Positions 26,472 to 47,193 of a stretch of 64,000 nt of DNA are shown in pieces; position 1 is the stretch's first letter, and every line of letters begins with the position of its first letter. A program made the translations under genes and the position numbers. Origin of the DNA: Bacillota bacterium. GTDB taxonomy: Bacteria > Bacillota > DTU025. Location of the stretch: contig JBMNJT010000002.1 of the NCBI GenBank assembly GCA_050951805.1, positions 1 through 64,000 on the forward strand, written 5' to 3'. Below the pieces are notes generated by a model. The model searched no databases. It was not told the origin of the DNA and saw nothing but the letters and a program-made list of their open reading frames with translations.

Positions 26472-29400
26472 ATGCATGCTGTAGGAGATTCCTTGGCAAG
26501 GCCCGGGCTCGACAGGAATGAATCATTGGCAACGGGCCCAAGTACTAGCCTGTTCAAGCACGAACAGGACGTAATAGACAAAATCAGAAACCAGATTCAA
26601 AGTGAGGATATCGGGAAGCTGGCTTCTAACGTTTACATCTTTGACCGGGCGACTGGCAGTTATCTCGAATGCGATATTGTGCTCGTTGCCTATTCTGGCA
26701 TTTACGTCGTTGAACTTAAGCATTGGTCGGGGCATATTGAAATTGCACCTTATCAATGGAAGATTAACCATACCAAGGAAGTGATATCGCCTCACAAGAA
26801 TAACCATCGTAAATGTCAAGTTCTAAAGAGCATTTATGAACACCATTTTAGGACATATCCAACTGATCTGTGGGTCGAATCGGTAGTAGTGCTGACAAAT
26901 CCTGATAGTGGTAGTAGTGGGCGCTAGCGATCCAAGCGAACTTGATGACGTAGCCAAACATAACCCAACATTCGATTCGCCGGCTCAGTTTATGAGATAT
27001 CTGCGGCAGAAGCAAAGTGGAGCAGGTAGCTCCATTCTTGATACTAGGCAAGTTGACAATATCGTTGATTACCTCGTTAACCTTCAGAATCCCCAAAAAG
27101 GAATACATTACAGTATCCCGGGTTATGAGATTGTCAGCTACTTATACCAAACCCCAGAATGCATAGAGTTGGTAGCCCGACCTGTCAATGGCCGGACTAG
27201 AGGGTTGAACCGTTTTAGAGTCTTTCGCCCTCCTGTTGAAGCAACACGAGAAGAGAAAGAACGGTTTGTTAAGAGAGCTACCAATACCTTAAATGCGGTG
27301 TCGGATATAGGCGAACACCCTAACATTCATAAGGTATGGCGTATCCCCAACGATTATGGGGACATCATAGAGATGTCTGACTGGTCCGAAACAGGAACTT
27401 TGCGCGATCTAATATATGAGCGCGATGGCAATTTTGACAAAGATGAGGCTTTGGCAATATGTAGACAGATAGCACTCTCTCTTCACGAGGCACACCGCTG
27501 CAACGTCATTCACCGTGCAGTAAAGCCAGAAAACATACTGATCATGCACGATATGGCCAAACTGACAAATTTCGACCTTTCTTATCAGGTTGAGGATCAT
27601 CGGTTAACCGTTATTCCGGATGTATCTGCTATTAAGGACGATGGTTACATAGCGCCTGAGGTTCTCATGGGTATGGATATTGACGAAGGTAGTGACTATT
27701 TCAGCCTAGGGGTAATAGCGTATCAACTATTGACAGGGGTTAAGCCCTTCGCGTCAACGAGGGAGTTTGTTGCCAAAGGTGGAGCGCTAGAATCTGATGA
27801 GATCGAAATGTTGGTTGGGAAAGGGACACCGGAGGCTACTGTTGACGCCATACAACGCATGGTAATTGCAGATCGCCGATCACGGCTGAAAAACGGCGAT
27901 ACAATCATATCTGCATTCAGTAGAAACGACATGGAACGGGAGGAAGGTGCACGCACGCCTGAGCACAATGCAGTATTGCAGGCCGGCGCTAAGCATGATG
28001 TTTATACAATAACCGGTTTTGTTGGTGCGGGCAAGGACGCACAGGTTTATCGAGCAGAGACATTGGAGAGCCGGATAGTAGCTCTCAAGATGTTTAACAG
28101 GGAAGTTCCCAAAAGTAGAATCATGAATGAGTATAAGGTCGGGACTGCTATACACTGTCCGTATGTTGCAGAATACTACAGTATTGGCCATTGGAGTAAT
28201 GATAGATACTTTATAGCGCTAGAATATGTCGCGGGCAGGTCTTTACGAGAGATGATTGACCAAGAGGAAAGGCCGGATAAAACCACGTTCCGAGCTATTG
28301 CAGTCTGCTTGATGGAAGCGATAAGGGCATTTCATCTGCACGAACGCGATGGCAAAGTGAGACCTCTATTGCATAGCGACATAAAACCAGAGAATATTCT
28401 GCTCCCCGAAAAGGATAAAGCAGTGCTCATCGATTTGGGGATAGCAGGTGAGCCTAGAGTGGACATTTTTGCGGGCACAGCAGGGTATGGTGCCACCTGA
28501 TAGCATGGACGGGACAGATATGCAGTTTTCCGAAAGCGTAGATCTATTTGCCCTTGGCGTTACGTTGTGGGAATGGCTATTTGGGGCTAAACCCTATCAG
28601 AGTGCTACTATCGGAGATACGCCCGACATGCCAGAACATATCGATGAGGAAATGCGGCAGTATTTACCATGGTTGCAGAAGGCTGTAGCTACTGAAGGCC
28701 ATGAAAGATACTCTACGATTGAAGAGATGTATGATGCCTTCCTAAAGTGTGATAGAGAAAGTGATGGGACTTCCGAAAAGGCGGATGCTGAAAGACATAG
28801 GAAAACGATCCTTCCCCATGACGAGGTTTCGTCCGAAGCTGTCTGTGGCAACACTGGAAAAGAGCGCGAAACTGGGACGCCGGAATTGGCAGCTTGGAAT
28901 CCATTCGTCGAATACCTCAACTCACTATGCAATTCATCCGCAGCTAATGAGAACGCTACCGCAGAGTCTCAGATTGGGAACGAATTTTTCGAGAGGATCC
29001 ATGTCAGGAATCCCATCACTGATTACGTCTATGATGTGCTTTTCGAGGACAAGACCAATGTCATTCTTACAGGCCACGCAGGGGATGGAAAAACGACCAT
29101 TGCTGCTGAGGTAATTCAAAGAGCAACAGGAGCGAGGCCGACGGTATTGCAGCGATCGGAAGACCTTTCCGAGGCTGGCTTGGTGGTCATCAAAGACATG
29201 AGTGAATTGGCCGGTCATGTTCAGGTTGATATTCTGAAAAGGGCCGTTGACGATGATTCGAAGAGATACTTAATTATCTCTAACACTGGCACATTGATAA
29301 ATAGCTTTAGGGGACTACGAAATTGCGGAATAGGGGTTAGTGAAAGTGAATTGCTGACGGCTCTCGAATCCGACAGGCCAGAGTACGTGCTAGACCATCA

Positions 29401-30610
29401 GTTTCAGATTATCAATATTGCCAAAAACGATAGCATTGATACAGCATGTATGGTATTCGATAGGATGCTTGAAGAGGACAACTGGCGTGAGTGTCAGCAG
29501 TGCAAGTACGTTGATGTATGCCCTATTAATAGTAACGTAGTCTTGCTTCAAGACTCATTGGATACCGCCAAGTCGCGGGTCGCGCTCATGTATAGGCGAT
29601 TGTACGAGTATAATATTGGGCTTACGATGCGGCAGATGACAGGCCACTTAGCATATGCTATTACTGCTGGGCTGAACTGCGAAGACATACATGACATGTC
29701 ATATATTGGGACGAAATCGTGTTTCCCTGGGACAATGTTCTTCAATCGATTCTTCGGTGATGACGGGGATGAAGTGGCCCCCGAAAGCCTGCAGCTATTG
29801 CCTGTGCAGCATATTAGGGAAGCCAATTTTGGTACATCCCTCGACCCCGAATTCGAAACGAGTGCGTGGATCGGAGATCAGGCGCCGTTTCCTCTCATAG
29901 GAAAGGCTAAAGACGTGTTTGAAAGGCTTCTCGCAACTCCGGATTTGGAGCCTCATTGTTGGCGTCGACAGGTCAGACGTCTAGGATATTTTACTAGTCC
30001 AATGAACGAGCAATCTGCGGGCAGATACGTATGCAACTTCTTGCAATCTCCTACATTGATGGACTTCTTGAAGTATTCAGAGGCCGATAGTTGTATTTCT
30101 GCGCTTGATGAAAGACATTATCGTCATCAGATACTCCAAGTGCTTCAGGAGCATTTCATAGGCATACGTTTGCCAGAAAACAACCGGGTAATACGCGACT
30201 TGTACATTACGCTAAATCATGGAGAGAACAGTTCTAGAACGCAGATGGTGCTTGCAACTCTCAGAGAAGACGATTTTAGGTTAGTTCTTAGGAAGCGCTA
30301 CATTTTGGGATCTAATGCAAGGAGTGTACTCTGCCTGGACTACAAAGATGGCGAAGCAACAATGGTACTAGATTTGCCGTTTCTCGATTATGTAGAGCGT
30401 AGATATCAAGGAGAGATTGCTGAGGAGCTATCTGCGAGCTATATGAACAGACTGGACCGGTTTAAGGCCGAACTCCTTGCTGCGTATGACAATCATTCGG
30501 AGGCCATTTGTGATAACGAGCGGTGCCTGGTTTTGCTTCGTATAGATCAGGCATACACGTTTCGAGTGATCACCATCCTCCAGAGCGATAACTACCTGGA
30601 GGTGATCTAG
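26472..30610 (+). CDS. NERD nuclease + pseudokinase + Ser/Thr kinase + P-loop ATPase fusion (~1370 aa; MAD6/PglW-like N-terminus, SspF/DndF-like C-terminus); frameshifts near 26905 and 28488
   Basis: NERD ECDIVLV..SGIYVVELKHWSG; kinase 1 HRAVKPEN/NFD; kinase 2 GAGKDAQVY, VALK, HSDIKPEN, DLG, GTAGY(V)PPD; ATPase ILTGHAGDGKT. Three ORFs join by short frame changes. Confidence 0.8.
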
Positions 30611-35200: not shown

Positions 35201-37551
35201 GGAGGTCTGATTACAGCCGAGTGGAAAGAACTGTAGACGCTGCACATAGGTGTAGCGCGTGGGTCGTATGCATAGATCCATGTATGGATGAGCAGTTGCT
35301 AAAGAAACCGTACGAATCGGGTTTGTCCCGTGACATAATTGGCTTTGGCTCAGGTGTTGGGGCACATGGCGAAAGCAACTACACGATATCTACCGAGCAG
35401 TTCTACTTGTCCGACATATCAGAGAAGATTGGTTCACAGGTATCCGCAATATTTACCCCAATAGACAGTGAAAGCGCCGATCGAATTGCTAAGAGTCTAA
35501 TGCAGGATGCACAGCACATAGGGGGACTTTCAGTGGTGAAGGCCACAGGACCATCAGATTATGTGAGAGATTACATGGCCTATTCCATGATGAGAAAGCT
35601 TCTGCCCAAGAATGACAGTGCGTTTTGCGATGAAATGATATCTTTGGACGCTGTTTGGCACTGGTTTGATGACGCAGAAGATCGAAAACGTCCCGATCTA
35701 CTTAGACTTCACGCTAACGTAGTGGACGGTTACTTCGATATTGAGGCACAGATTATCGAATGCAAGCTTGCAGCACATTCCGAAAAGTATCTCGTCGATG
35801 CACGGCAACAGATTGAAAATGGCATGAGGCAACTTTCTGCCCATTTTCGTCCTCGAGAAAGTGATAGACCTATGGGGACTGCTGATAGGCCTCCCGACCA
35901 GAGATTCTGGTGGATGCAGCTTCACCGTTTGATTGCTAGTCGAGGCATGGCAAGCCCACAAGACTATAATGAAGCTCTGCTAGCTCTTGAACGTCTGAGT
36001 GAGGGATACTTCGACATTACGTGGCAAGCGGCAGCGGTAGCATTTTGGACCGATATGGATACTGAGACCATTACGTGTACGCCTTCATGGGAAATAGGCT
36101 TATGCGATGACGAACGACTAACCGTGTCTGTCGCTACTGCAGGTAAAGGATTTTTTAAGAAAGTATGTATGGACAATATCCGCGGGCCAGTATTCTGCGA
36201 CGACAGCAGCATTACTTTTAGATTCGCGCGACCAATAAGCAACCGTGGTCAAAAGGGTAATGCATATGAAGCTCAGGAATTCTCTGAAGCAATAGCAGCG
36301 GCCACTGTGCCTGCTGTTGCAGACCGAGCGGCACCAGAACCCTCTATGTCGTCTCAAGGGACCTTGGAAATACCGCTGGATGATGGTGAGCAGGAGCGAC
36401 AGCTTTCCGAAGTACCTGATCGGATACTGCTTGGTAGATTCACGTCAGGTTATAGAGAAATCTATTGGGAGTTTGGTCATCCGGAGCTATTGAATCGACA
36501 TATAGTGATCTTTGGTTCCTCTGGCTCAGGCAAGACCTATACCATTCAAGCGCTGCTATTGGAACTTGCCAAAGCAGGTCAGAATAGCTTAATAGTTGAT
36601 TATACAAATGGGTTTACTGCGGGGCAGCTAGAGCCGATCATTGTGGACAAGCTTTCTCCGACTCAACATGTGGTGAGACAGGAACCCCTGCCGATAAATC
36701 CCTTCCGCCGACAGTGTGACTACATTGATGACCAGCCGTTGCCTGAAACTCCAGCTGGAGTGGCCAGACGGGTTACCGATCTGTTTGCGAGTGTGTATCA
36801 AATAGGGGATCAACAGCGTTCTGCGCTCTATACGGCCATACGAGATGGAATAGATGAAAAGGGAGACAGCTTTACGCTGGAGGATTTGGTCAGCACCTTG
36901 GAAGAGATCCAGTATGGGAAGGGACCAACTTCAATACCAGCGGCAACGCTTGTCAGCAAGATGAGGCCTTTTGTGGACATGAATCCATTTGGCAGGGAGG
37001 ACAAAGATAGCTGGGAGAGACTATTTACGGATACTGAATCAAGATGCCACATAGTTCAATTGATGGGATTTCCTAAAGATAGCGCTCGGCTGATCACGGA
37101 ATTTTGCTTGTCCGATTTCTACTGGTATTACCGGGCCAATGGGAACAAAGATTGTCCAAGAGTGGTAGTGCTTGATGAAATCCAGAATCTTAACCACAGC
37201 CTTGACAGTCCAATAAGTCAGTTGCTCACTGAAGGCCGTAAATTCGGAGTTTCACTCATATTAGCCACACAGACCATGAGCAACCTCGGAAAAGATGAAA
37301 GGGACAGACTTTTTCAGGCTAGTCACAAGCTTTTCTTTAAGCCGGCGGACACGGAAGTCAGGTCTTTTGCTCAGATACTTGCTGATTCAGATTCCACGAA
37401 GACTTCACAAAGTGAATGGGTGGAACGGCTATCTTCGCTGAAACTGGGCGAATGCTACTCGCTTGGTCCCGCCTCGAGTGAGCCAATACAGAAACTAGAA
37501 GTAGGTAAGAGCTTCAGGATCCGCGTGACAGCGTTGGATGAAAGACTTTAG
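32260..37551 (+). CDS. Large PD-(D/E)XK nuclease + HerA/FtsK-like ATPase (SspH/DndH/MAD8-like)
   Basis: 1763 aa; RPDLL...IIECK nuclease motif; NRHIVIFGSSGSGKT, VVLDEIQN and EGRKFGVSLILATQ HerA motifs. Confidence 0.82.
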   Translation: MKYLANAIADYILRNVDRNSGTLRFVLPSYPAEVLLEIGRKVDEGIQRRLDRNIGYEYGIAYRLGKEWAAGTRADKACFEQIQEKGWYNKQNNLTSLRNIVKPDDVDCLVILLAGYTDVDDQASLKDFFHLDQDDVWDMCLRQSFAGWVRDCVRGHINMDDAEHDIEAICNVLEGLCNNGLAHVLDISNFLESLDFSSARDGHDAYRIVLQGLPFFGLPQMDGLAHKPLSRRNFGRYVAPAQEFLNYSMFIDEKKRETARISIDGFRQQVANGMSDVDISVLGPFATEEKPLDEFLNALEDYVDNRSETARAKLAGVDFLYVYEKVLGYKPPSPGGKEPAIPRTRKLAGLPPEVFLHGLWLTFADFEKANNGVGIDSVSAVVLESIEFRYDYDASDDENHCELAKLFMRRVLGGIDDFLEDQLRLGVGADDASIAVTSRLEPDTEDASRLSYRKHNNAEPYLKFQVSIFTHGNDKPFIRDFRWALPEYHQSRLLIDLYDWAYAKCRVAGDALPIFAVPYMSEIFMASDEETINHIMGRALQENRRLAAELHAATNFRQYEYTDKVLPLLGGLSACYQEFIEQVLTCGFFNALHSKYYVLRDNYCRVLETYIETSDCSISGPLLMKAFMLVSDNNLDMSALLRNDILEAGIVTPLHPALLEMILYQHVFLCESFCYYFNEKLKEPSAKLFTGRRWERAVELSTMRWPVFGTIGANRSLDTHVNSYGYVHLVGHPRGDSLSIGSTLLLQDKDVDEDEEITDTDLFGETMSSRLIKRTLLDYRQVHEHADDGISIGVYCGGDMQPIIAGIDSYLSEVITKERGNRLYSLKLTVFSDSVHDATFLRWVDAWKERWQQAELSQAKRHYTNCRISISYQVTSSKDDFKQLEDLVERTPLDVMVFLNFIPPDLSEFKLIGEDDFIEAGYQKFPILEKIYCRVDDGGMDSQRRRILSNHRFRLGALHAEAMARILTGPRSLKQKHAVIWRSDYSRVERTVDAAHRCSAWVVCIDPCMDEQLLKKPYESGLSRDIIGFGSGVGAHGESNYTISTEQFYLSDISEKIGSQVSAIFTPIDSESADRIAKSLMQDAQHIGGLSVVKATGPSDYVRDYMAYSMMRKLLPKNDSAFCDEMISLDAVWHWFDDAEDRKRPDLLRLHANVVDGYFDIEAQIIECKLAAHSEKYLVDARQQIENGMRQLSAHFRPRESDRPMGTADRPPDQRFWWMQLHRLIASRGMASPQDYNEALLALERLSEGYFDITWQAAAVAFWTDMDTETITCTPSWEIGLCDDERLTVSVATAGKGFFKKVCMDNIRGPVFCDDSSITFRFARPISNRGQKGNAYEAQEFSEAIAAATVPAVADRAAPEPSMSSQGTLEIPLDDGEQERQLSEVPDRILLGRFTSGYREIYWEFGHPELLNRHIVIFGSSGSGKTYTIQALLLELAKAGQNSLIVDYTNGFTAGQLEPIIVDKLSPTQHVVRQEPLPINPFRRQCDYIDDQPLPETPAGVARRVTDLFASVYQIGDQQRSALYTAIRDGIDEKGDSFTLEDLVSTLEEIQYGKGPTSIPAATLVSKMRPFVDMNPFGREDKDSWERLFTDTESRCHIVQLMGFPKDSARLITEFCLSDFYWYYRANGNKDCPRVVVLDEIQNLNHSLDSPISQLLTEGRKFGVSLILATQTMSNLGKDERDRLFQASHKLFFKPADTEVRSFAQILADSDSTKTSQSEWVERLSSLKLGECYSLGPASSEPIQKLEVGKSFRIRVTALDERL

Positions 37552-37565
37552 GGGGTACGTAGAGC

Positions 37566-38393
37566 TTGCTACCTGTTAATTTCCATCAGACATTCATACC
37601 CGAAAGGCGCTATATAGCGTCTCTTCTTCAATATGCTGCTTTGGGTGATCAAGGCACGTTGCAGGAAATAGCAGAGGATACTGGCATACCAATGGGCGAA
37701 TCGTCTGGTAAACTCGCTGCAACGATAGACTATGCTACGGGCATGGGGCTAATATGTATCGAAAGTGCGGCCGACCGATCAGTGAAGAGGCCTATACTTA
37801 CCGCCTTTGGGCATGTAGTTTATGCTGAGGACAAGTTTCTGGGTGAACAGATGGCGCAGTGGTTAGCCCATATGAATCTGTGTTCTTCGCTGATAGGTGC
37901 GACAGCTTGGCACGAAGTGTTCGCAAAAGGTCGCAGGCTCTTGGGCATTAGCTTTACCAGAGATCAGCTGGAAGATTACCTTGTTAGGATATATGGACCA
38001 ACCAAGACCAGAACGAGGACGGGTCCACTGCTGCTCACATACCAAGAGGATGAAGCGTTAGGACGAAGTGGCGTGTTAACGGTGGACGAAGATACAGTCA
38101 CTAGGCATAAGGCTCCAATCATGGACGAGTATGCCATACCGTATTCCGCGTATGTGCTTCAATTACTCGAAACACATTTCCCAGGTCAGAATCAGATCAC
38201 GTTGACTGACTTCGCAGATAGCACCTTGTGGTTTGATATCTGTCTTTGGAACGAGATGGATGTTGAAGATGTAATGAGAGTTATTGAGAGCAAAGGTCTT
38301 GTTTCTGTGGATCGCCAGATGCAGCCGTGGATAATTGAGAAAAGAGCCGATGCAGATCGAGTGTGGTCCCTCATATACTCTGAGATTGTGTAA
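37566..38393 (+). CDS. Divergent DUF4007-like protein (second SspB-like gene)
   Basis: FHQTF (cf. HETF) and LTAFG..V...DKFL...AQWLAHMNL (cf. TKLG..LF...DPYL...SLWLLHWQL). Confidence 0.65.
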   Translation: MLPVNFHQTFIPERRYIASLLQYAALGDQGTLQEIAEDTGIPMGESSGKLAATIDYATGMGLICIESAADRSVKRPILTAFGHVVYAEDKFLGEQMAQWLAHMNLCSSLIGATAWHEVFAKGRRLLGISFTRDQLEDYLVRIYGPTKTRTRTGPLLLTYQEDEALGRSGVLTVDEDTVTRHKAPIMDEYAIPYSAYVLQLLETHFPGQNQITLTDFADSTLWFDICLWNEMDVEDVMRVIESKGLVSVDRQMQPWIIEKRADADRVWSLIYSEIV

Positions 38394-38402
38394 CGAAGGA
38401 GA

Positions 38403-41400
38403 ATGCCCAATATGAAGCTCTCGGATATTGTACGCTTTAGGAAGGATCTCCTTTTTGAGGGAGCGGTCCAGTTAGGATGGTTCCAAGAGGACAGGAATCT
38501 AGCAAACAAAGCCGCTGAGCACTATGTGTTCCATGGCCCGCAGTATCACGGAGTTACTGAAGGCGATCTTGATGATATCGGCCCTAGCCTTGTAGATACT
38601 GCTACATTCACGCTCGATATTCTCGAACGCATCACTGGCCAGACAGGTGACGAGCCATTCACAATGGCCATAGCAGGATACGGAACGGGAAAATCCCATC
38701 TTGCCATAACCCTCGCCTGCCTACTTAGTGACCCCAACTCTTCTGTGGCAGACAAGATTCTTGATAATATTAGCATGGCTGATGTCGAAATAGGTAGAGA
38801 GGCACGCCATATACTGAACAGTTCAGATCAGCCATTTTTAGTGGTTCCACTAAACGGAATGCAGGACTTTGACCTGAGTGCAGAAATAGTCCGACAGGTG
38901 CTACATGCTCTTACTGAAAACGGTTTGGATACTGCGCCTCTTGAAGACCTGCGGCCTCGGTTTAGAACTGCAGCCAACTTCACGGAATCGTTTTTTGATG
39001 CATTGGCAGATGATTTCGCGATTGCCTTTGGACGATCGTGTGACAAGCGCAAGATAATTGCTGATTTGAAAGCTCAAGATGAGGAGACATTCAGCAAAGT
39101 TAACGATATCTATCGGGAGAAAATGGGTTCGACGATACGCGCCGTTGGCCACGAGTCGCTTCATGATTTTATCCGTGTTGCAAAAGAGACATATTGTGGT
39201 CCTGGAAGACCTTTTCGCGGCATAGTGATCATTTTTGATGAATTCGGGCGTTATCTGGAGTTTTCTGTGCAAAAGCGTCACATTGCGGGTTCGGGTGCTC
39301 TACAACAGTTGTTCGAGTGTGTCCAGGCAAATGATGACGGTGTCTTCCTGTTATGCTTTATCCAGTATGAATTGAAGGCATATATATCTCGTATTGCGCC
39401 TGAATTACGTGAGGATCTAAACCGTTATGTGACTCGTTACGATGCTGTACGTAAGGTACGGTTGTCTACCAATATGGAGACTTTGATAGCGAATCTCCTT
39501 GAAAAAAAGGACCGAGAGGCACTAGATGAGCAGATTAATGGTTTTTCGGTAGCCCCAAAAATCATTCAGGCGTCGATGCAGCGCTGGTTCCCTGACATGA
39601 CGAATCATGCTCTGTGGTTGGACGAGGATAGGTTTAGTCGAATTATCTGTAGGGGATGTTGGCCGCTCCATCCTTGTTCAACATGGGCCCTCTATAGGCT
39701 TACTGCTATTGGCAAGTCACTGCAACAGCGCTCGGCGCTATCTTTACTTGCAGACGTGTACCAGCATTTTAAAGACGAAGATGTCACTCTGGGGATGACA
39801 ATAGACCTTGTGGATCTGTGTAATGAGGGCCTAATAAACGAATTCCTCGCTTCAGAGAGATACGGGCAGCAGGGGGCTACTGCACATGGATATGAGACTG
39901 TCCTGGAGAGATATAGGAATGCACTGTCAGAAGATGAAAAGCGCGTACTGAAAGGAGTGCTCGTTTCAGCTAAAATCGGCATGAAGGCTGATTCAAAGGA
40001 AGAGTATATCCAAGCCTTGTCGATGTTTTCTGGTTTAGGGATGATGGCGGTAGAGACTGCCATACGTTCCTTGGAAGGCGAATATGCGGTGCTGGAATGG
40101 AACGATCTTCTTAACCAGTACGAAATTGCAGGAGATGCTATTCCCAGAAAGACATTCTTAGCTCAACTAAAGGAAAGAACATCGGATATTGATTCTGCTA
40201 GACGTGCAAGCATTTTCACTCAGAAGCTGTCTGCCTGGGGGATAGTAAGCGACACATACTATACAGATTTTGGTAGCGCAAACAACATAACTACAAATGA
40301 ATGGAATTATAGAATTCACTTAGCTGATGTCTCTATCATTGATGAACAGATCAATTTCGCCATACATACATGGCGTGAATCAATAGCAGTGGACATATCA
40401 AAAGGTCAGCTAATATACTGCTACGTGGGGCCTGAAAGCAATATTGAGACTGTGAAGGAAAATGCACTAAGGAGAATCTGGGCAGCTGCTGAAGAGAATG
40501 GTCTTGATGTAGAGAATGGGTTGCCTCTTGCAGTGTTGTTCTTGTATGACGAAGATGGAACATTCGGCCAGAAACTTGCAGAACTATGGGTTTTGGATGA
40601 GCAAGAGCGAGAGACGGAATCTCAGAAGTACATGCATTTTGTGCTTGACAGAAAGAGAAGCCTAGAGCAAGAGATACGGAATCAGTTTTCAAAACTGCAG
40701 AGGGAGCAACATATAGTGCTTGGCACGAATAGAGAAATATCTGGCTCGAAGATCAAAGATATTCTCGATCAGCTTTTTGATGAAGTATATCCAAAACGGA
40801 TACCATTTCCTTTTGATGGATTTTCTACAACTCGTGGCAATGCTGCAAGAGATAGCGGATCTTTCACTAGACAGTTGTTTTTGGGGACTTTGGATCGTGA
40901 TTGGATAGCTGCACAGAGCAAGCAACAGCGAAATCGTGCCTTTGAAGTATTGGAGAGAGCATGGGGCCTTATTGGCTGCGATGGGGCGTTACGGAGGATA
41001 CCGCTAGATGAGAGTGTGCGCCACTTCATTGATGTTCTTGGCCAAAGCCTTGTTGCCGAAGAGGATGATCCCTATGGAGCAATGACTATGGGAGAGGCAC
41101 TACATATGTTGTGCATGCCGCCTTATGGATGCAATATTGCGTCTGCGGGCTTACTACTAGCGTACTTCATAGGAAGCCGGAAAGATGAAGTGCAGTTGTA
41201 CCTCCATAACCAGGCCACAAGCACTGAGAAATGGCTAGAGACTGCAATGCCTCAGCCATTTCCTGTCCATACCTGCTCTGGAAGCGACCAATGTGGTTCG
41301 GAGTCCCCGGAGAGAGCCTGTCAGAATGGGAAACGCTATTAGAGCAATGGGAATTAGAGGATTCGCTCAGTGGCAAGGTAGACTTCCTAAGGAAAGAACG

Positions 41401-42734
41401 AGATTTGGGGAGACGCATCCCAATACCGCAGCAACTATACTACAAACGCGACTCCCTGAGGAAGGAATCCCGCTCTGCTGAAAGCGAGCTTAGGCAAGTG
41501 GAAACTGACTTCGACCGGGCTCTAGAAAAAATACAACAAGGAATAGAGCGCGACGACGTATCTCTGCTTTCATGGGGAGCTGCAGACTTGAAAGACATTC
41601 ATAGAAAAATGATTATTGAACCGGAAAAGTGGACAGGCGAGCAGATACAGAAGGTAGAAGCTTGCCTTGCAGAGTCTAAGCAGGAGACATGCAATAGGTT
41701 TGATAGGTGGCTACCCATACAGAAAGTGGTTCGTGTCGAAGATTTGGGTCGCTTCAAACATACGATGCTCACCCACGTGGGAGGTAATTTGTCCAAACTA
41801 GGGTTGGAGGAGCAAGAACAGCGGTTGGAGCGCCATGTGGAGTGGATAGAGGAACAGGTGGAATTCCTGGCCGAGATTCACAGAACAACAACTGATATTG
41901 AGAACATGATTCTCTCGAATGTAGTAACTGCTGCCGCAAAGGTTTCTGTGCTCAATGATTGGCTGAGGCAGGCGGAAGGGTTGGCCGGACGGTTGGATGC
42001 AGCACGTCAACGAGCGGACTTCGATAGGGACGCGCTTGATAAGCGCAGCAAAGAAGCTTAGGGATTTCAAACGGGCCTGCGAGGACCAACTTAGTATGCA
42101 CAGACAGCGGGCAGCCAATGTATATGATACTAGGGAGATTGCCTCGTTGAGCGACATAGCCAATTGGCGGAACGAAGTTACGGACCTGTTGCGAGTATTT
42201 GAAGGCCAGGAATTGGATGTTGAGGACTTGAAAGCCGTTCAGACACAATTGCATCTAGTCGAAATGCATTACGAGTCTCTTACCGATAGTTCTCTGGACG
42301 ATGCGGGATTTGAAGCTTTGCTACACCAATGTAAAGCCGAGAATAACAGAGCCTTCGCTGGTGACGTTCCGCCATTGGATAATGAACGAATATATGAAAG
42401 CATCGCGGAGTCCATTGGTGACAAGAGGCATCGCACCGCAGCAAACTGGATGAAAGTCAACCTTCCTAGCATGGAAGACATAGAGCAGGCAGATGCATCC
42501 ACTGTTGTTGCATACAGGACGAGACTGCATAACATGCCCCTTTTGCTGTCGGAGCGCCAGATAGAGGAAGTAAACAGGTCGCTGGAAGCATGTGCAAGCC
42601 GTATTGACGAGCTGGAGGTAGAAGGGGCATTGGCGCTCTTTAGCGCATTGTCTGATGAGAATAAGATAGTCTTCATAAGGGAGATTTCTCATTACATAGA
42701 CAAGCGCTATGCTGCCCATATGCACTTGTCTTGA
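38403..42734 (+). CDS. Second large SspC/BrxC-like ATPase with long helical/coiled-coil tail (~1440 aa; frameshifts near 41250-41305 and 42050)
   Basis: GYGTGKSH, IIFDEFGRYLE, WPLHP, QQRSAL and PPYG motifs parallel those of the first ATPase; three overlapping ORFs. Confidence 0.75.
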
Positions 42735-43026
42735 AATCAAGTTGATGTCAACGGGCTAGAAACCCTGTCGGTATTTACCTAATGCGTTGGAGAAATGAAA
42801 AGACTTTTGGTGTGCTGCTTCACGTCGACGATTAGCCTGTTGTGCATTTAAACTGCAACAATTGTATATTTGTCGCCGGCCAATGGAGGATATCTGTTGG
42901 CCTTTGTGCTATTTATCAGTACAGATGCGGTATGGATGGATTATCCAAAGAAGAACTGATTGACAGTCTTACTTCTGCGACACGGGCTTGGCTAGGCCAG
43001 AATGTGGGATCATGCAAAGGAGTGGA

Positions 43027-44673
43027 AGTCACGTCCGATATAATGCTGTAAAAGGCCTTCGCCCTGTTGTGGTGGGTTGGGATGGGTATGGAAAGGCCAC
43101 TGGTTCTCTAGTAGAATTGGAGCATAAGCGAACCAATTATCTACTAGGAGGAGAACCAATGGCTACATATCAGATTAGCATATCCGAAGAGCAATTGCAT
43201 GGACTTTTTGATGGGGACCGTGGGTTAGCAAACCTTCTTGAATCAGTGCTTAACCAGGTGCTTGAAGCGCAGGCTACGGAGCAGCTTGGGGCAGAGCCTT
43301 ATCAGAGAACTGAGGAGCGGACCGGGTATCGCAATGGGTCCAGAAGGCGACCCTTGGTGACGCGGGTGGGCTCAATTACCCTTGAGGTCCCCCAGTTTAG
43401 AAAGGGCAAGCTGAATACGGACCTTTTTGAAAGGTACCAGCGCAGCGAACGAGCCCTGATTGCCACGCTTGTTGAAATGGTAGTGAACGGGGTGTCTACT
43501 CGCAAGATTCGAAAGATAACCCGCGAGCTATGTGGTGTGGACATCTCGGAATCCACAGTCTCAGACATGGTGAAGACGCTGGACCCTGCAGTGCGCGAAT
43601 GGCGTGAACGTCCTCTCGACAAAGGGCCATATCCGTTTTTATTGGTTGATGCGATAGTGATCAAGATCCGCAAGGGAGGCAGGGTCTGGAATCACAGTGC
43701 GCTGATTGCCGTAGGCGTAAACTCTGAAGGCATGCGCGAAATTATCGGGTTCATGCTTGCAGACAGCGAGAAGGAAGACTCATGGCGCGAGTTCTTCAAC
43801 TCTTTAAAGGCAAGGGGCCTTTCGGGCGTAGACCTTGTGGTGTCAGATGACCATGGAGGACTAGTCAATGCTGTAGCAGTAGAGTTTCAGGGGGCATCAT
43901 GGCAGCGTTGCCAGACTCATTTCACTAAGAACATCCTGGATGCGTGCCCCAAGGCGCTTAAGGATGAACTCCACTCCCGACTGCGCCTCATGTTTGAAGC
44001 GCCCGATATGGATACTGCCAGAGAATTGCTTGGTGGCATCATTGCTGATTTCGCAGCTCGGGCCCCTAAGGCAATCGACAGGCTTGAAGAAGGATTTGAC
44101 GATGCAATGGCTGTAATGGTTCTACCCCAATGCCTCCGGAAAAGGCTGAGAACAACCAACTGTGTAGAGAGGCTCAACGAAGAGATCCGAAGGCGGGAAC
44201 GGGTGATAAGGATATTCCCAAACGGTGATTCGGCCATCAGGCTGCTTGGTGCTGTGCTTATCGAAAGGGATGAGGATTGGTCTACCGGTCGCAAGTATCT
44301 CAACATGGCTGAGTATTGGCAATGGAAGCAGGCTTGTGAATCGGGCCAGGCAGAATCCTCGCTCCATGTCGCTTGAGGGTTAGCGCTTCTCGTTACAATC
44401 CAAGCTGATGGCTATCGCTGACTCCGGCGCAGACCGAGAGGAAAGCAGAACCTAGCTAGAGATAAATATCTTGGTCATGGACTAACTTGCCTCGAGGCCG
44501 AGCCGGAGTACAATACTCATTCGGCTTGGATAGAAAGTGCAAACCAGTCGAATGCGTCCACTATACCAAGGAAGAGGAATTGGATGAAATTCGTCGGCAG
44601 TCCCGACTAGCTATCTATACAAACATGCTCCAGTAGAGGAGAACTGCTTTTACAGCACATTTCGGACTTGATC
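43027..44673 (+). mobile_element. IS256 family insertion sequence
   Basis: Imperfect terminal IRs AGTCACGTCCGATATAATGCTGTAAAAG / CTTTTACAGCACATTTCGGACTTGATC, flanked by an 8-bp direct repeat GGAGTGGA (43019-43026 and 44674-44681). Confidence 0.93.
43159..44376 (+). CDS. IS256 family transposase
   Basis: GYRNG, FERYQRSE, GVSTRK, VVSDDHGGL, WQRCQTHF and RTTNCVERLNEEIRRR motifs; AGGAGG RBS. Confidence 0.96.
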   Translation: MATYQISISEEQLHGLFDGDRGLANLLESVLNQVLEAQATEQLGAEPYQRTEERTGYRNGSRRRPLVTRVGSITLEVPQFRKGKLNTDLFERYQRSERALIATLVEMVVNGVSTRKIRKITRELCGVDISESTVSDMVKTLDPAVREWRERPLDKGPYPFLLVDAIVIKIRKGGRVWNHSALIAVGVNSEGMREIIGFMLADSEKEDSWREFFNSLKARGLSGVDLVVSDDHGGLVNAVAVEFQGASWQRCQTHFTKNILDACPKALKDELHSRLRLMFEAPDMDTARELLGGIIADFAARAPKAIDRLEEGFDDAMAVMVLPQCLRKRLRTTNCVERLNEEIRRRERVIRIFPNGDSAIRLLGAVLIERDEDWSTGRKYLNMAEYWQWKQACESGQAESSLHVA

Positions 44674-44948
44674 GGAGTGGATTTTCATGAACGGAGGAAC
44701 ACACGGGTTTCCTACCATGCAACAGTATTTTGCGAAAAGGTATCGCGTTTGGGCAATTATAAGTTTCGTCATTGTTCTAGTACTCTCGCTCGTTGCTGTG
44801 TTTAGTGCAGACTAGAACTACGGGGAAATGCAGAATGGATTTCCCTGAAGTTGCAGAATAGAATTCCGTGTTTCTGCAGACAAAGAAGGCCATTGCAGTG
44901 GCCCCCCAGAACACCCCTTGTGGACAAACATAAGGGGGGGTCGGGAGG

Positions 44949-46475
44949 ATGCTTACAATGGCACAGATAAATTCTATCAGACAACTGTTCTTTGAGAAAG
45001 GCCTGGGTTATGCTGAAATCGCAAGGGCCACGGGTTTTGACGTGAAGACTGTGAAGAAATACATACTGATGGAAGATTTCAATCAACCTCTTCCGAAGCC
45101 AAAGCAGATTCGTGGCTCTAAACTGGATAAATACAAAGAGCAAATCGACCAATGGATGGTGTCAGATAAGCAGGAGCGGAAGAAGCAGCGCCATACAGCG
45201 AAAAGGATTTTCGACCGGCTTGCAAAGGAGCATCCTGGGTTCGATTGCTCTTACCGCTTGGTAGCAGATTATGTCTCCCGGAAGAAGAAGGAGATCTACG
45301 GCAAGCAAGAAGGGTTCTACATGCCGCTAATTCATATACCAGGCGAAGCGCAGGTGGACTTTGGCGAAGCTGACTTCTTTGACAGAAACGTGCGTTGTAC
45401 AGGCCACTATTTGAACGTGTCTTTTCCACACAGCAACGCAGGCTACCTGCAGGTGTTCAAGGGTGAAAACATGCAGTGCCTGGCAGAGGGCCTAATGAAT
45501 ATCTTCGCGCACATAGGAGGAGTGCCGACAAGATTGTGGTTTGATAACCTATCACCTGCAGTCAAGACGATTCTGAAGGATGACGGGCGCGAATTGACAG
45601 ATGCCTTCTTGCGTTTCAAGAGCCATTACGGTTTTGCCACTGCCTTCTGCAATCCGGGCCAAGGCCATGAGAAGGGCAGTGTGGAGACGAAAGTAGGATA
45701 TCACCGCCGTAACATGCTGGTACCTGTACCCAAAGTAGATGATTTGAAGGAGTTCAACCGCCGACTCTTAGAGGAATGCGATCAGGACATGCTGCGGCCT
45801 CATTACTTGAAGAAACGTCTTCACAGAGACCTTTTTGAAGAAGACTTAGAAGCTTTCCTATCCTTGCCGTCTGTGCCTTTTGACGCATCTGAAATCAAGG
45901 TAGTGCGCACAAACAGCTATGCCAAGTTTACTTTGAACAACGGGAAGCACACGTATTCCACGGCTCCACGTTACGCAAAAAGCCAGGTGTTTGTGCAGCT
46001 AACAGCGTATGATGTCATTGCTTTCGATGAGAATTACCGGGAGATCATAAGGCACCCCAGGCTTTACGGCGACTATGAACAAGAGAGTATGGACTGGCTG
46101 CCTTACCTGACGCAGTTATCCAGGCGACCCGCAGCGTTGAAGTACACCGGCATCTACCCGATGTTGCCTCAAGAGGTACAGGCGTTCTTGGACTCGTGTA
46201 GCTACCAGGCTAAGAAAGAGACCCTGAGGGTCCTGGCCGAACTGAGCGAGAAAAGCAGCTTCAGCAAAGCCGCCGAGGCTGTCAGAAACGTCATCTTGCA
46301 TGGCGCACGGGATGCAGACAGCATTGTGGCTATGTTCAACAGGCTAAACGGCGATATCACGGATTTGGCCCCTATGGTTCTGCCGGCCAGCGTTCCTGAA
46401 ATGCCGTCGGTCAAGCCAAACCTGAGCGACTACGACCACATGCTCTTCAGGGAGGGCGAAGCCTGTGAAAGCTGA
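44949..46475 (+). CDS. istA: IS21 transposase IstA
   Basis: N-terminal HTH; PGEAQVDFG, GGVP.RLWFDN and HEKGSVE motifs. Confidence 0.96.
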   Translation: MLTMAQINSIRQLFFEKGLGYAEIARATGFDVKTVKKYILMEDFNQPLPKPKQIRGSKLDKYKEQIDQWMVSDKQERKKQRHTAKRIFDRLAKEHPGFDCSYRLVADYVSRKKKEIYGKQEGFYMPLIHIPGEAQVDFGEADFFDRNVRCTGHYLNVSFPHSNAGYLQVFKGENMQCLAEGLMNIFAHIGGVPTRLWFDNLSPAVKTILKDDGRELTDAFLRFKSHYGFATAFCNPGQGHEKGSVETKVGYHRRNMLVPVPKVDDLKEFNRRLLEECDQDMLRPHYLKKRLHRDLFEEDLEAFLSLPSVPFDASEIKVVRTNSYAKFTLNNGKHTYSTAPRYAKSQVFVQLTAYDVIAFDENYREIIRHPRLYGDYEQESMDWLPYLTQLSRRPAALKYTGIYPMLPQEVQAFLDSCSYQAKKETLRVLAELSEKSSFSKAAEAVRNVILHGARDADSIVAMFNRLNGDITDLAPMVLPASVPEMPSVKPNLSDYDHMLFREGEACES

Positions 46476-47193
46476 AATCGCTGAGTGCTGCAAACGCCTC
46501 CGGTTAAGCAGGAACATTGCTGCTATCTGCGACCAGATGGAAGCTGACAGCTATCAAGAGTATTTGCTGAAGATACTTCAGCATGAACTTGCCTACCGGG
46601 AGACTGCCCGGAGAAATCGACTGATCAAACAGGCAGGGTTCTATTCATTGAAGACGTTTGAAGGGTACTGCTTCGATGAGATTCGATTCCCGGGCGAACT
46701 GTCGGTTCCTGCACTAAAGACGACAGCGTTCATTGATGAAAAGAAGAATCTCGTGCTCTATGGCAATGTGGGCACGGGGAAAACGCACTTGGCTACAGCA
46801 ATCGGCGTCGAGGCTTGCAACAGAGGCAAGACTGTGCGCTTCTTCCGCACGGCCGCCCTAGTCAATCAACTTAACGAGGTTCAGAAGAGCGGAGAGATCA
46901 GCCGGTTCTTCAAGCAATTAGCCAAGACGGACCTTCTGATCTGTGACGAGTGGGGGTATGTGCCTCTGGACCAGGCAGGATCCAAGCTTCTGTTCCAGGT
47001 CATCTCAGACTGCTATGAGCAAAGGAGTGTGATCATAACCACAAACCTTGAGTTTAGCAAATGGGTAAACGTCTTCTATGATGAGCAGATGACCGCTGCC
47101 ATGATTGACCGCTTGGTCCATCACAGCTACCTTCTGCTTTTCGATGGCCAGAGCTATCGAATCAAGAATTCACTGATGAGAGAGCACTCTTAA
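46465..47193 (+). CDS. istB: IS21 helper ATPase IstB
   Basis: GNVGTGKTH, LLICDEWGY, TTNLEFSKW and DRLVHH motifs. Confidence 0.96.
   Translation: MKAEIAECCKRLRLSRNIAAICDQMEADSYQEYLLKILQHELAYRETARRNRLIKQAGFYSLKTFEGYCFDEIRFPGELSVPALKTTAFIDEKKNLVLYGNVGTGKTHLATAIGVEACNRGKTVRFFRTAALVNQLNEVQKSGEISRFFKQLAKTDLLICDEWGYVPLDQAGSKLLFQVISDCYEQRSVIITTNLEFSKWVNVFYDEQMTAAMIDRLVHHSYLLLFDGQSYRIKNSLMREHS

Follow-up and report, generated by a model that had tools for sequence, protein, structure and literature searches.

An SspF/DndF-type subunit carrying a NERD nuclease and a pseudokinase-kinase pair in a Bacillota phosphorothioation operon

The window analyzed here, a 64,000 nucleotide stretch of contig JBMNJT010000002.1 (Bacillota bacterium assembly GCA_050951805.1), encodes at 26472..30610 (+) a single 1378 aa protein in which a NERD domain, a pseudokinase and an intact Ser/Thr kinase precede an SspF/DndF-type P-loop core. 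It is very probably the SspF-type (F) subunit of a phosphorothioate (PT)-linked restriction system. The first-pass annotation regarded the fusion as a new signalling layer, but the architecture had already been published, from computation: Rakesh, Aravind and Krishnan 2024 (PMC10853773) describe in their main text DndF fused to a wHTH, to NERD and to S/T/Y kinases, inactive and active, and the same fusion is restated in a passage of PMC12839542 (2026). The additions here, drawn from sequence comparisons, are a probable identity of the 'wHTH' as a sulfur-binding domain (SBD), the apparent equivalence of MAD6-7-8 with F-G-H, and a kinase cassette that appears optional.

One gene within an ssp operon

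The operon has the order sspB, sspC, sspD, the NERD-kinase-F gene, sspG and sspH, after which come one DUF4007-like and one SspC/BrxC-like gene (Table 1). The PT context proposed earlier is borne out, with sspBCD lying directly upstream in the same orientation and matching PADLOC profiles. The F start codon (ATG at 26472) is preceded by the ribosome site GAGGTG, and the sspD stop lies 10 nt before it. The H protein carries a nuclease (PD1146...E1167xK), whose P, D, E and K are invariant (31/31), and a HerA/FtsK ATPase with its Walker A at residue 1419. Of 28 loci with sufficient DNA, 21 have the second DUF4007/SspB-like gene next after H; for the second SspC/BrxC-like gene, Atlas neighbours carry DUF6079/BrxC. 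Profile searches recognized neither a phosphatase gene nor pglXYZ in the operon, and there is no tRNA gene in the window. Two full-length aminotransferase class V genes of cysteine-desulfurase type (PF00266; E 1.7e-94 and 5.5e-83) lie elsewhere in the genome, outside the operon, and are candidates for the cysteine desulfurase (sspA or iscS) of the Ssp system.

Table 1. Features of the operon and of the NERD-kinase-F gene in window coordinates.
Feature	Coordinates	Strand	Details
sspB (DUF4007), 306 aa	21291..22211	+	PADLOC SspB E 3.8e-97; PF13182
sspC ATPase, 1145 aa	22216..25653	+	PADLOC SspC 1095 bits
sspD, PAPS-reductase family, 275 aa	25634..26461	+	PADLOC SspD E 4.7e-96; PF01507
NERD PD-(D/E)xK nuclease domain, residues 29-142	26556..26897	+	PF08378
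Frame break 1, extra base in assembly	26910	+	absent in 4/4 runs
Pseudokinase, ~residues 212-485	27106..27927	+	Gly loop absent; R249 replaces Lys and N271 replaces Glu; HRA, NFD
Hanks-type Ser/Thr kinase, ~residues 505-760	27985..28753	+	PF00069; K539, E553, D636, K638, N641, D654; non-RD
Frame break 2, extra base in assembly	28489	+	absent in 4/4 runs
SspF/DndF-type core, residues 806-1378	28889..30607	+	PADLOC SspF E 6.2e-36; model pLDDT 89, pTM 0.90
sspG-like, 544 aa	30610..32244	+	PADLOC SspG E 4.8e-17; start overlaps F stop
SspH/DndH-like, 1763 aa	32260..37551	+	DndH E 9e-59, SspH E 3e-17, mad8 E 3e-17
Second DUF4007/SspB-like gene, 275 aa	37566..38393	+	PF13182 E 8e-7
Second SspC/BrxC-like (DUF6079-type) ATPase, ~1440 aa, three pieces	38403..42734	+	SspC E 3.6e-17

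As assembled, the F gene is split into three open reading frames (26454/26472-26927, 26908-28500 and 28448-30610). The database protein P0001 (1378 aa) is identical to the three pieces joined in order, save for a single substitution (residue 259). Its cluster has eight members, four of 1378 aa, three split pieces and a 313 aa fragment, and one of the 1378 aa members occurs on 28 contigs. The two frameshift sites flagged in the first-pass annotation were compared in assembled contigs (not raw reads) of four runs from four studies, one of them possibly the source sample of the window, and at each site all four have one base fewer. NERD-kinase-F is thus truly one gene, split in the window by sequencing errors. 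The second SspC/BrxC-like gene has extra bases at 41252, 41300 and 42044, absent in every run covering them. Nor are homologues always separate genes, as an intact 1378 aa protein is on record, and 209 long homologues exist; at one locus (L082) the cassette and F are encoded as two adjacent ORFs. A genuine disruption of the gene in this strain, or an artefactual fusion, is suggested by the three ORFs that the assembly displays and by the presence of the pieces in the protein collection, but this is largely refuted and most improbable given that both extra bases are missing even from the possible source sample, that identical or near-identical 1378 aa proteins lie on many contigs, that there are so many long homologues, and that the next gene downstream has the same kind of breaks. 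The locus is an example of how single-base assembly errors make three apparent pseudogene pieces of such a gene.

Both breaks turn TGT into TGGT. Without the extra base neither site contains CCA/TGG, and for that reason a reading of the assembly errors as marks of PT sites was rejected. No homologue was found in 40 related genomes searched at E 1e-30; a search of genome contigs with the last ORF of the window alone gave no match, and the loci described below were retrieved with an alignment query. An RNA-library contig spans 23204-30491, which is no proof of transcription, and a promoter scan (5 sites, against 2.2 +/- 1.6 by chance) was not used.

Domains of the fused protein

All the motifs named in the first-pass annotation (HRAVKPEN, NFD, VALK, HSDIKPEN, DLG and GHAGDGKT) are found where it placed them. 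In the NERD domain E31, D68, E81 and K83 are all kept in 115/115 homologues. The first kinase domain has HRAVKPEN (H347, nt 27511) and NFD in place of DFG, and lacks a Gly loop; across the homologues its beta3 Lys is replaced by Arg in 115/115 and the alphaC Glu is present in 0/115, and all 30 fused representatives inspected share the Lys-to-Arg change and the loss of the DFG Gly. The reported loss of its catalytic Asp holds for the protein in the window, but not as a rule of the family, the HRD Asp being retained by 11 of 44 full-length fused representatives.

Active Hanks kinases are characterized by a beta3 Lys, an alphaC Glu, a catalytic Asp and Asn, and a Mg-binding Asp. All five are present in the second kinase domain of P0001 and in that of 107/115 homologues (the K, D, N and D together in 114/115), along with a VGAGKD Gly loop, VALK (K539), HSDIKPEN (H634, nt 28372) and DLG, and the domain is predicted to be catalytically complete. 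The earlier picture of a pseudokinase beside a catalytically complete kinase is therefore upheld by residue conservation, and the pseudokinase is as conserved as its partner, with 58 of 274 columns at least 90% conserved versus 50 of 256. A model of the N-terminal 964 residues of a homologue has confident domains but no fixed arrangement (pTM 0.54), and so gives no evidence of pseudokinase-kinase contact. The top Foldseek rows for this model suggested a likeness to the JAK/TYK2 pseudokinase-kinase pair, which was rejected as merely two kinase folds in a row (TM ~0.2, rmsd 19-37).

An SspF-type core after the kinases, also proposed earlier, is supported by the PADLOC match, by Walker A GHAGDGKT (G867-T874, nt 29072) and by conserved core residues. 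The model and conservation together give a helical extension, KD908, a Cys insert (1007/1010/1016), R1053, a helical lid and an alpha+beta C-terminal domain. Asn replaces the Walker B Asp (N937, 115/115), and in the strand-2 motif D908 (115/115) follows an invariant Lys, this motif being YD in the MAD6 cores read; C1007, C1010, C1016 and R1053 are conserved among the homologues. The DndF profile does not match the F protein at E 0.001. The core of DndF is described as a derived P-loop kinase fold. For the core model here, Foldseek gave no match at E 0.001, a result that does not imply a new fold, and the best VIA rows are STAND/Cdc6-type P-loops with middling scores (Z 8.5-9.8, rmsd 4-5.7, 171-249 aligned). 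Canonical SspF does not carry the NERD-kinase N-terminus: the protein at locus L030, with 950 bits on the SspF profile, is 597 aa long.

Distribution of the cassette and its proposed role

In 98 of 120 long homologues the N-terminal 'wHTH' is a match for the PT-reading SBD, with the sulfur cavity kept, and the comparison of this domain with SBDHga (PDB 8H0L) gives E 8e-26 and E 6e-16. The cavity residues named in PMC10602919 are largely retained (H25 84/92, K26 86/92, P76 91/92, H79 79/92), and reading the 'wHTH' as an SBD appears to be new to this analysis; main-text passages of PMC10853773 do not equate the two. The SBD of Hga targets cleavage to PT DNA, whereas on F it belongs to a subunit encoded beside PT-making genes and so must mark self. 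Where a locus has both upstream DNA and an SBD supported by profile, sspD lies upstream in 15/15, though these are kin and not independent. SBD-kinase members are present in cultured strains, Thermacetogenium phaeum DSM 12270 and Desulfofundulus thermosubterraneus DSM 16057. P0001 has just 25 residues before NERD, with no SBD profile match, and the loss is real since sspD ends immediately upstream; in some other homologues the SBD may be missing only through truncation at a contig end. A profile search of the assembly found no SBD elsewhere.

The best 150 representatives of 50% clusters comprise 44 with NERD and kinases (22 of these with an SBD), 39 SBD-F forms and 38 of F alone, with 16 fragments and 13 others set aside; 77 thus have no kinase at all. 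The kinase-less forms nest inside the fused clade, in trees with weakly supported inner branches, and their G and H neighbours are unchanged; because the FastTree trees were used without a clade test, no order of gains and losses is claimed. Gene contents were compared at 37 loci (L001-L035, L040 and L055) and five metagenome loci, most rows of the searches being unrelated single kinases; L034 (a single kinase) and L166 (unannotated) were left out of the tallies. Wherever the DNA of a kinase-fused locus extends beyond H (6/6), G, H and the DUF4007/BrxC-like pair are retained, and sspBCD is upstream in 5 of 6 fused loci with >2.5 kb of upstream DNA; a fused locus, L010, has no ssp gene within 2.8 kb upstream. 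From these comparisons the cassette appears to be optional on F and gained or lost as a block, which argues for a plug-in second effector arm over an obligatory phosphorylation gate.

A scenario with roughly even chances is that F belongs to an SspFGH-type complex to which the cassette adds such an arm. As in known systems, SspBCD and a housekeeping cysteine desulfurase would mark self DNA with sulfur, and FGH would travel along DNA on the HerA/FtsK motor of H, whose PD-(D/E)xK domain would nick unmodified DNA. The NERD-pseudokinase-kinase cassette would be a self-contained unit, its kinase held back or scaffolded by the pseudokinase. When an invader is met or the complex is blocked, the nucleotide-binding F core would change and so release the kinase, which would autophosphorylate and switch on the attached NERD nuclease, and might also phosphorylate host proteins. 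The outcome would be backup DNA damage or cell arrest, with core restriction independent of the cassette. In most relatives the N-terminal SBD would let the same chain read PT marks directly, an ability that the lineage of the window would have lost. A plug-in arm is supported by the occurrence of the same cassette on a different C-terminal half in PglW, and by the invariant nuclease site of H itself alongside the kept NERD and second-kinase residues.

Gating of restriction by the kinase, as the first-pass annotation had it, is plausible, yet we consider it rather unlikely. Here the second kinase would phosphorylate F, G, H or the modification proteins and so switch restriction on or off, with the pseudokinase, or the SBD in relatives, as sensor. 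A phage kinase turns DndFGH off through Ser, Thr and Tyr phosphorylation (PMC12345140), so complexes of this kind respond to phosphorylation; most fused homologues have a PT-reading SBD on the kinase chain, and a loop in which the SBD sees self and the kinase silences the complex would prevent autoimmunity. The strong conservation of the pseudokinase also favours a gate, and the loss of defence in PglW K677A, where the kinase Lys is needed (PMC4365076), is compatible with either a gate or a backup. However, over half of the best 150 representatives do without a kinase, the kinase-less relatives nest among fused ones beside the same G and H genes, and the FF-93 SspFGH defends with an SspF for which Walker A alone is noted. 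The operon moreover has no recognized phosphatase gene, and the cassette travels with an apparently complete nuclease that a pure switch would not need.

Somewhat more doubtful is a broader reading in which SspFGH, DndFGH and MAD6-7-8 would be one restriction machine with different self-marks, the SBD and kinase cassette being swappable on F. An SBD-kinase chain would read the sulfur mark and respond with phosphorylation, silencing or licensing the complex, so that a protein kinase would transduce a mark on the DNA backbone, and the DUF4007 and SspC/BrxC-like pair after H would complete a five-gene restriction module, of which we found no description.

It is improbable that F-G-H is PT-independent and senses invader features itself, with the adjoining sspBCD a second, loosely linked island set. 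According to Rakesh et al., DndFGH often occurs uncoupled from PT genes; in MADS the partner of the homologous trio is a methylase, 6 of 16 F-alone loci with at least 5 kb upstream have no ssp gene, and no SBD was found on this F or elsewhere in the assembly. Against this, sspD ends only 10 nt before F, sspD accompanies every SBD locus with upstream DNA (kin, as noted), and the toxicity that SspFGH has in the absence of PT is relieved by SspBCD.

F alone, SBD-F, kinase-F and SBD-kinase-F form a natural series on one core that lets the reader domain and the kinase be studied separately. PT sensing by DndFGH and SspFGH is called poorly understood (PMC12914056, 2026), and the restriction mechanism of MADS is listed as unknown (PMC12904381).

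Comparison with known systems

The DndF of Rakesh et al., as their main text presents it, has the same domain order of NERD, inactive kinase, active kinase and F core, and its Walker A, Asn at Walker B, helical extension, lid (about 200 residues, with an optional Zn insert and a conserved Arg) and alpha+beta C-terminal domain all recur in this F; the strand-2 motif is ND there and KD here. The present F also differs in its sspBCD partners, in its best profile (SspF) and in having no wHTH/SBD. A co-effector role, which favours the plug-in arm, is proposed in PMC10853773, the main text of which never names SspF or MADS, although its supplement may list this clade.

The Vibrio anguillarum FF-93 SspABCD-SspFGH system (PMC8092258) likewise has sspBCD adjoining F-G-H in one orientation, a Walker A in F and an FtsK-like end to SspH, and the window has profile matches to all six ssp genes. 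Canonical SspF is ~560-600 aa without a kinase, against 1378 aa with the cassette here; its profile scores just 122 bits on this F, which is therefore of a distant subfamily, and two further genes (DUF4007-like and SspC/BrxC-like) follow H. SspABCD-SspFGH places PT at CCA, restricts phage and spares self DNA through the PT mark.

The NERD and tandem kinase layout attributed earlier to BREX type 2 PglW is indeed common to both, P0001 residues 24-777 matching the NERD-pseudokinase-kinase half of PglW. The C-terminal half of PglW is instead wHTH/iSTAND and not an F core (PMC12839542), and P0001 reaches 173 bits on NF033442 (PglW) versus a cut-off of 990, the match ending at residue 777. PglW is known to autophosphorylate, and in E. 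coli it is toxic (PMC4365076), both in keeping with a plug-in effector arm.

The layout is also shared with MAD6, but there the likeness extends beyond the N-terminus invoked in the first-pass annotation, to an SspF-type core. The MAD6 proteins from four plasmid MADS loci (1379-1391 aa) have NERD, two kinase domains and this core, and profiles of F, G and H match MAD6 (E 9e-32 to 8e-21), MAD7 (E 6e-13 to 7e-10) and MAD8 (E 2.5e-22 to 0.0016) in 4/4 each, reversed controls giving E 0.1 at best. MAD6 is thus the same fusion paired with methylation, because MAD6-7-8 match F-G-H gene by gene. Deleting mad6 weakens MADS, a deletion that removes the F core too. The MADS trio is paired with an N6 methylase and a specificity subunit and the present trio with sspBCD, which lies upstream where neither the mad2 methylase nor the mad5 specificity subunit is found in the operon. 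P0001 scores 357 bits on NF047741 (MAD6; cut-off 460), versus 789 and 644 for two plasmid MAD6 proteins; the MAD7 profile does not match the G of the window, the MAD6 cores form a separate long branch in the tree, and three MAD6 proteins read keep HRD in the first kinase. By profile cut-offs and neighbours, then, this F is assigned to neither MAD6 nor PglW. The MAD6-7-8 match predicts that MADS restricts by an FGH-type translocase-nickase, and NERD-kinase-F would link a sulfur-DNA anti-phage system to the methylation-based MADS defence.

One fused gene with two frame breaks

The gene for the SspF/DndF-type subunit (F) occurs in the window as three overlapping ORFs. By profile, NERD falls on the first and two kinase domains fall on the second; the third holds an SspF match as well as the end of kinase 2. 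Database protein P0001 (1378 aa), the best match, equals these pieces joined end to end with one substitution, and 1378-aa proteins make up half of its cluster (4/8 members). Contigs of all four runs, from four studies, have one base fewer at 26910 and at 28489, and 4139 nt less two gives 1378 codons plus a stop. Searching the F part against longer proteins yielded 209 relatives out of 7354 candidates, and NERD and kinase domains are present in every one of the best 120 listed. The NERD-kinase-kinase-F fusion is real and the frame breaks are almost certainly assembly errors. The first-pass annotation had raised genuine breaks with homologues always encoded separately, or a canonical SspF already carrying this N-terminus; neither is the case. 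Locus L082 has SBD-NERD-kinases and F as adjoining ORFs, which may be separate in nature or through a sequence error.

Features of the window and related loci (L numbers)
Feature	Location	Remark
NERD-pseudokinase-kinase-F gene	window 26472..30610 (+)	
SBD-NERD-kinases (870 aa) and F (654 aa)	L082:7198-11799	two adjoining ORFs
Segment with alternative contigs	window 35908-36485	contigs of two runs connect 35933 to 36462 via 510 other letters
DUF4007-like gene	window 37566..38393	directly after H
SspC/BrxC-like ATPase gene	window 38403..42734	in three pieces
Same gene pair	L003, L004, L006-L008, L010-L015, L017-L019, L024, L025, L028, L032, L081, L082, L084	
IS256 transposase and IS21 istA/istB	window 42988-47193	directly after low-GC defence island
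Two GmrSD-family genes	L029:1028-4631	upstream of F-G-H module; no ssp gene seen
MAD6-MAD7-MAD8, matching F, G and H gene by gene	L162:4521-15635; L163:11950-23243; L164:11878-23299; L165:9875-21179	plasmid MADS loci
PP2C-domain phosphatase gene	L162:15632-16336; L165:21176-21841	directly after MAD8

Domains and modularity of the F chain

The two kinase domains are read here by the usual kinase motif definitions. In an alignment of 115 of the 120 listed proteins (five near neighbours omitted), kinase 1 lacks the Gly loop, has Arg for the beta3 Lys throughout (115/115), never retains the alphaC Glu or the HRD Asp (0/115 each) and has (N/D)FD in place of DFG; its conservation matches that of kinase 2, which marks it as a maintained pseudokinase. 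More distant representatives retain the HRD Asp in 11 of 44 cases, and each of the 30 inspected has Arg in place of the Lys and no DFG Gly. Kinase 2, a non-RD kinase, has its Lys, Asp, Asn and Asp all present in 114/115 aligned proteins and in the same 30 distant ones. The domain reading made from the sequence is borne out: a pseudokinase without the HRD Asp, a catalytically intact kinase and an F core. NERD keeps E31, D68, E/D81 and K83 in all aligned proteins, and in the F core GxAGDGK, KD908 and N937 are invariant, accompanied by three Cys and R1053. The F core is modelled well (pLDDT 89, pTM 0.90), and against solved structures the model has no clear relative, the best rows being STAND/Cdc6-type P-loops of middling Z. 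For the first 964 residues of a homologue single domains fold with no fixed relative arrangement (pTM 0.54).

Among the best 120 of the 209 relatives, 98 carry an additional N-terminal domain that matches the phosphorothioate (PT)-reading sulfur-binding domain (SBD) SBDHga (PDB 8H0L); in homologue P0013 it matches an NCBIfam PT-DNA restriction model at E 3.5e-12, under that model's cut-off. The sulfur-cavity residues named in PMC10602919 are kept (H25 84/92, K26 86/92, P76 91/92, H79 79/92), position 75 being variable. With flanks of up to 10 kb and kin that are not independent, sspD lies upstream in 15/15 loci that have upstream DNA and an SBD supported by profile (16/16 counting L016, its SBD recognised by eye), and 6 of 16 F-alone loci with at least 5 kb upstream have no visible ssp gene. 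The window protein has no SBD, and none was found in its assembly.

An unfiltered F-core search gave 592 representatives at E 0.001, the best 150 comprising SBD-NERD-kinases-F (22), NERD-kinases-F (22), SBD-F (39) and F alone (38), the remainder (16 fragments, 13 partial or otherwise different) being set aside. F-core trees, built with FastTree, weak in their inner branches and without a clade test, place kinase-less forms inside the fused clade and scatter SBD-less forms, and with this tally they indicate that the core is constant, with the SBD and the cassette (NERD plus kinases) coming and going. The common SBD-F form without kinases stands alongside sspD in L005, L007, L019-L021, L023, L024, L028, L032 and L083.

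The operon and the gene pair after H

The window order is sspB-sspC-sspD-F-G-H, followed by the DUF4007-like and SspC/BrxC-like ATPase genes, in a stretch of GC 0.47 versus 0.55 on either side; a homologue search of 40 related genomes gave no match. H carries a Walker A motif and a PD...ExK site that is invariant, and two full-length cysteine-desulfurase-type genes lie elsewhere in the genome. The alternative contigs within H, joined through 24-26 matching letters per side, are probably an H homologue of another organism. In related loci G and H follow F wherever the DNA reaches, and sspBCD is upstream in 5/6 kinase-fused loci with more than 2.5 kb of upstream DNA, the exception being L010.

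The pair is 3' of H in 21/28 loci with enough DNA and in all six that are kinase-fused, including loci in whose vicinity no sspBCD is seen (L013, L017, L018, L025). It may form a five-gene restriction module with F-G-H, which our literature search did not find described, supplements being where it may appear. In the window ATPase gene, extra bases at 41252, 41300 and 42044 are missing from every run covering them, and from 41250 on run contigs differ at many positions (one contig of 17 kb has as many as 114 other letters), so the sequence here is either poorly polished or a divergent allele.

Proposed mechanism and relation to known systems

The gene, its domains, operon and modular distribution are established. 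By analogy with known systems, SspBCD would set PT marks and FGH would translocate and nick. We favour, at about even confidence, a self-contained cassette arm in which the pseudokinase would restrain the kinase, a change in the F core would activate it, and autophosphorylation would switch on NERD as a backup. A tentative, less probable alternative is that the kinase would act as a gate by phosphorylating the restriction complex, a view that PglW genetics, the inactivation of DndFGH by a phage kinase and the SBD-kinase linkage keep in play. PT-independent action of F-G-H is improbable, less likely than the arm or the gate, and a truly broken window gene, likewise behind both, is very improbable indeed.

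PMC8092258 defines SspFGH, PMC4365076 describes the PglW autokinase and its K677A mutant, PMC12345140 reports the phage-kinase inactivation, and PMC11662687 gives a 2:2:1 DndFGH stoichiometry, nicking coupled to translocation and PT repression of the DndFGH ATPase; the MADS preprint, PMC13662399, PMC12904381 and PMC12914056 were likewise consulted. The literature search found neither an identification of F's N-terminal domain as an SBD, which supplements may state, nor a link between MAD6-8 and FGH, which supplements and the Cell Host Microbe MADS paper may state.

P0001 matches six plasmid records, four of them annotated loci with a methylase, an S subunit or hypothetical gene, the kinase, and genes of ~530 and ~1800 aa. 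L162 and L163 both clear the cut-offs for MAD6 and MAD7, and that for MAD8 is passed by L162 and narrowly missed by L163; L164 scores 733 bits on PADLOC mad6 and 881 on mad7. Our F, G and H profiles match MAD6, MAD7 and MAD8 in 4/4 loci (small database, weakest E 0.0016; reversed controls of eight proteins, best E 0.1), and PADLOC independently matches SspF, SspG and SspH on L162, from which we conclude that MAD6 is the same NERD-kinase-kinase-F fusion. The window protein itself is ruled out as MAD6 by score and neighbourhood. The phosphatase gene after MAD8 in two of the four loci may be the kinase's counterpart; no such gene was recognised in the window operon. The NERD-pseudokinase-kinase-F architecture is already in print, PMC12839542 restating the DndF-kinase fusion published in PMC10853773 and comparing PglW, and its function is a predicted one; the value of this case lies in its side results, namely the SBD, the conserved extra gene pair and the matching of MAD6-7-8 to F-G-H.
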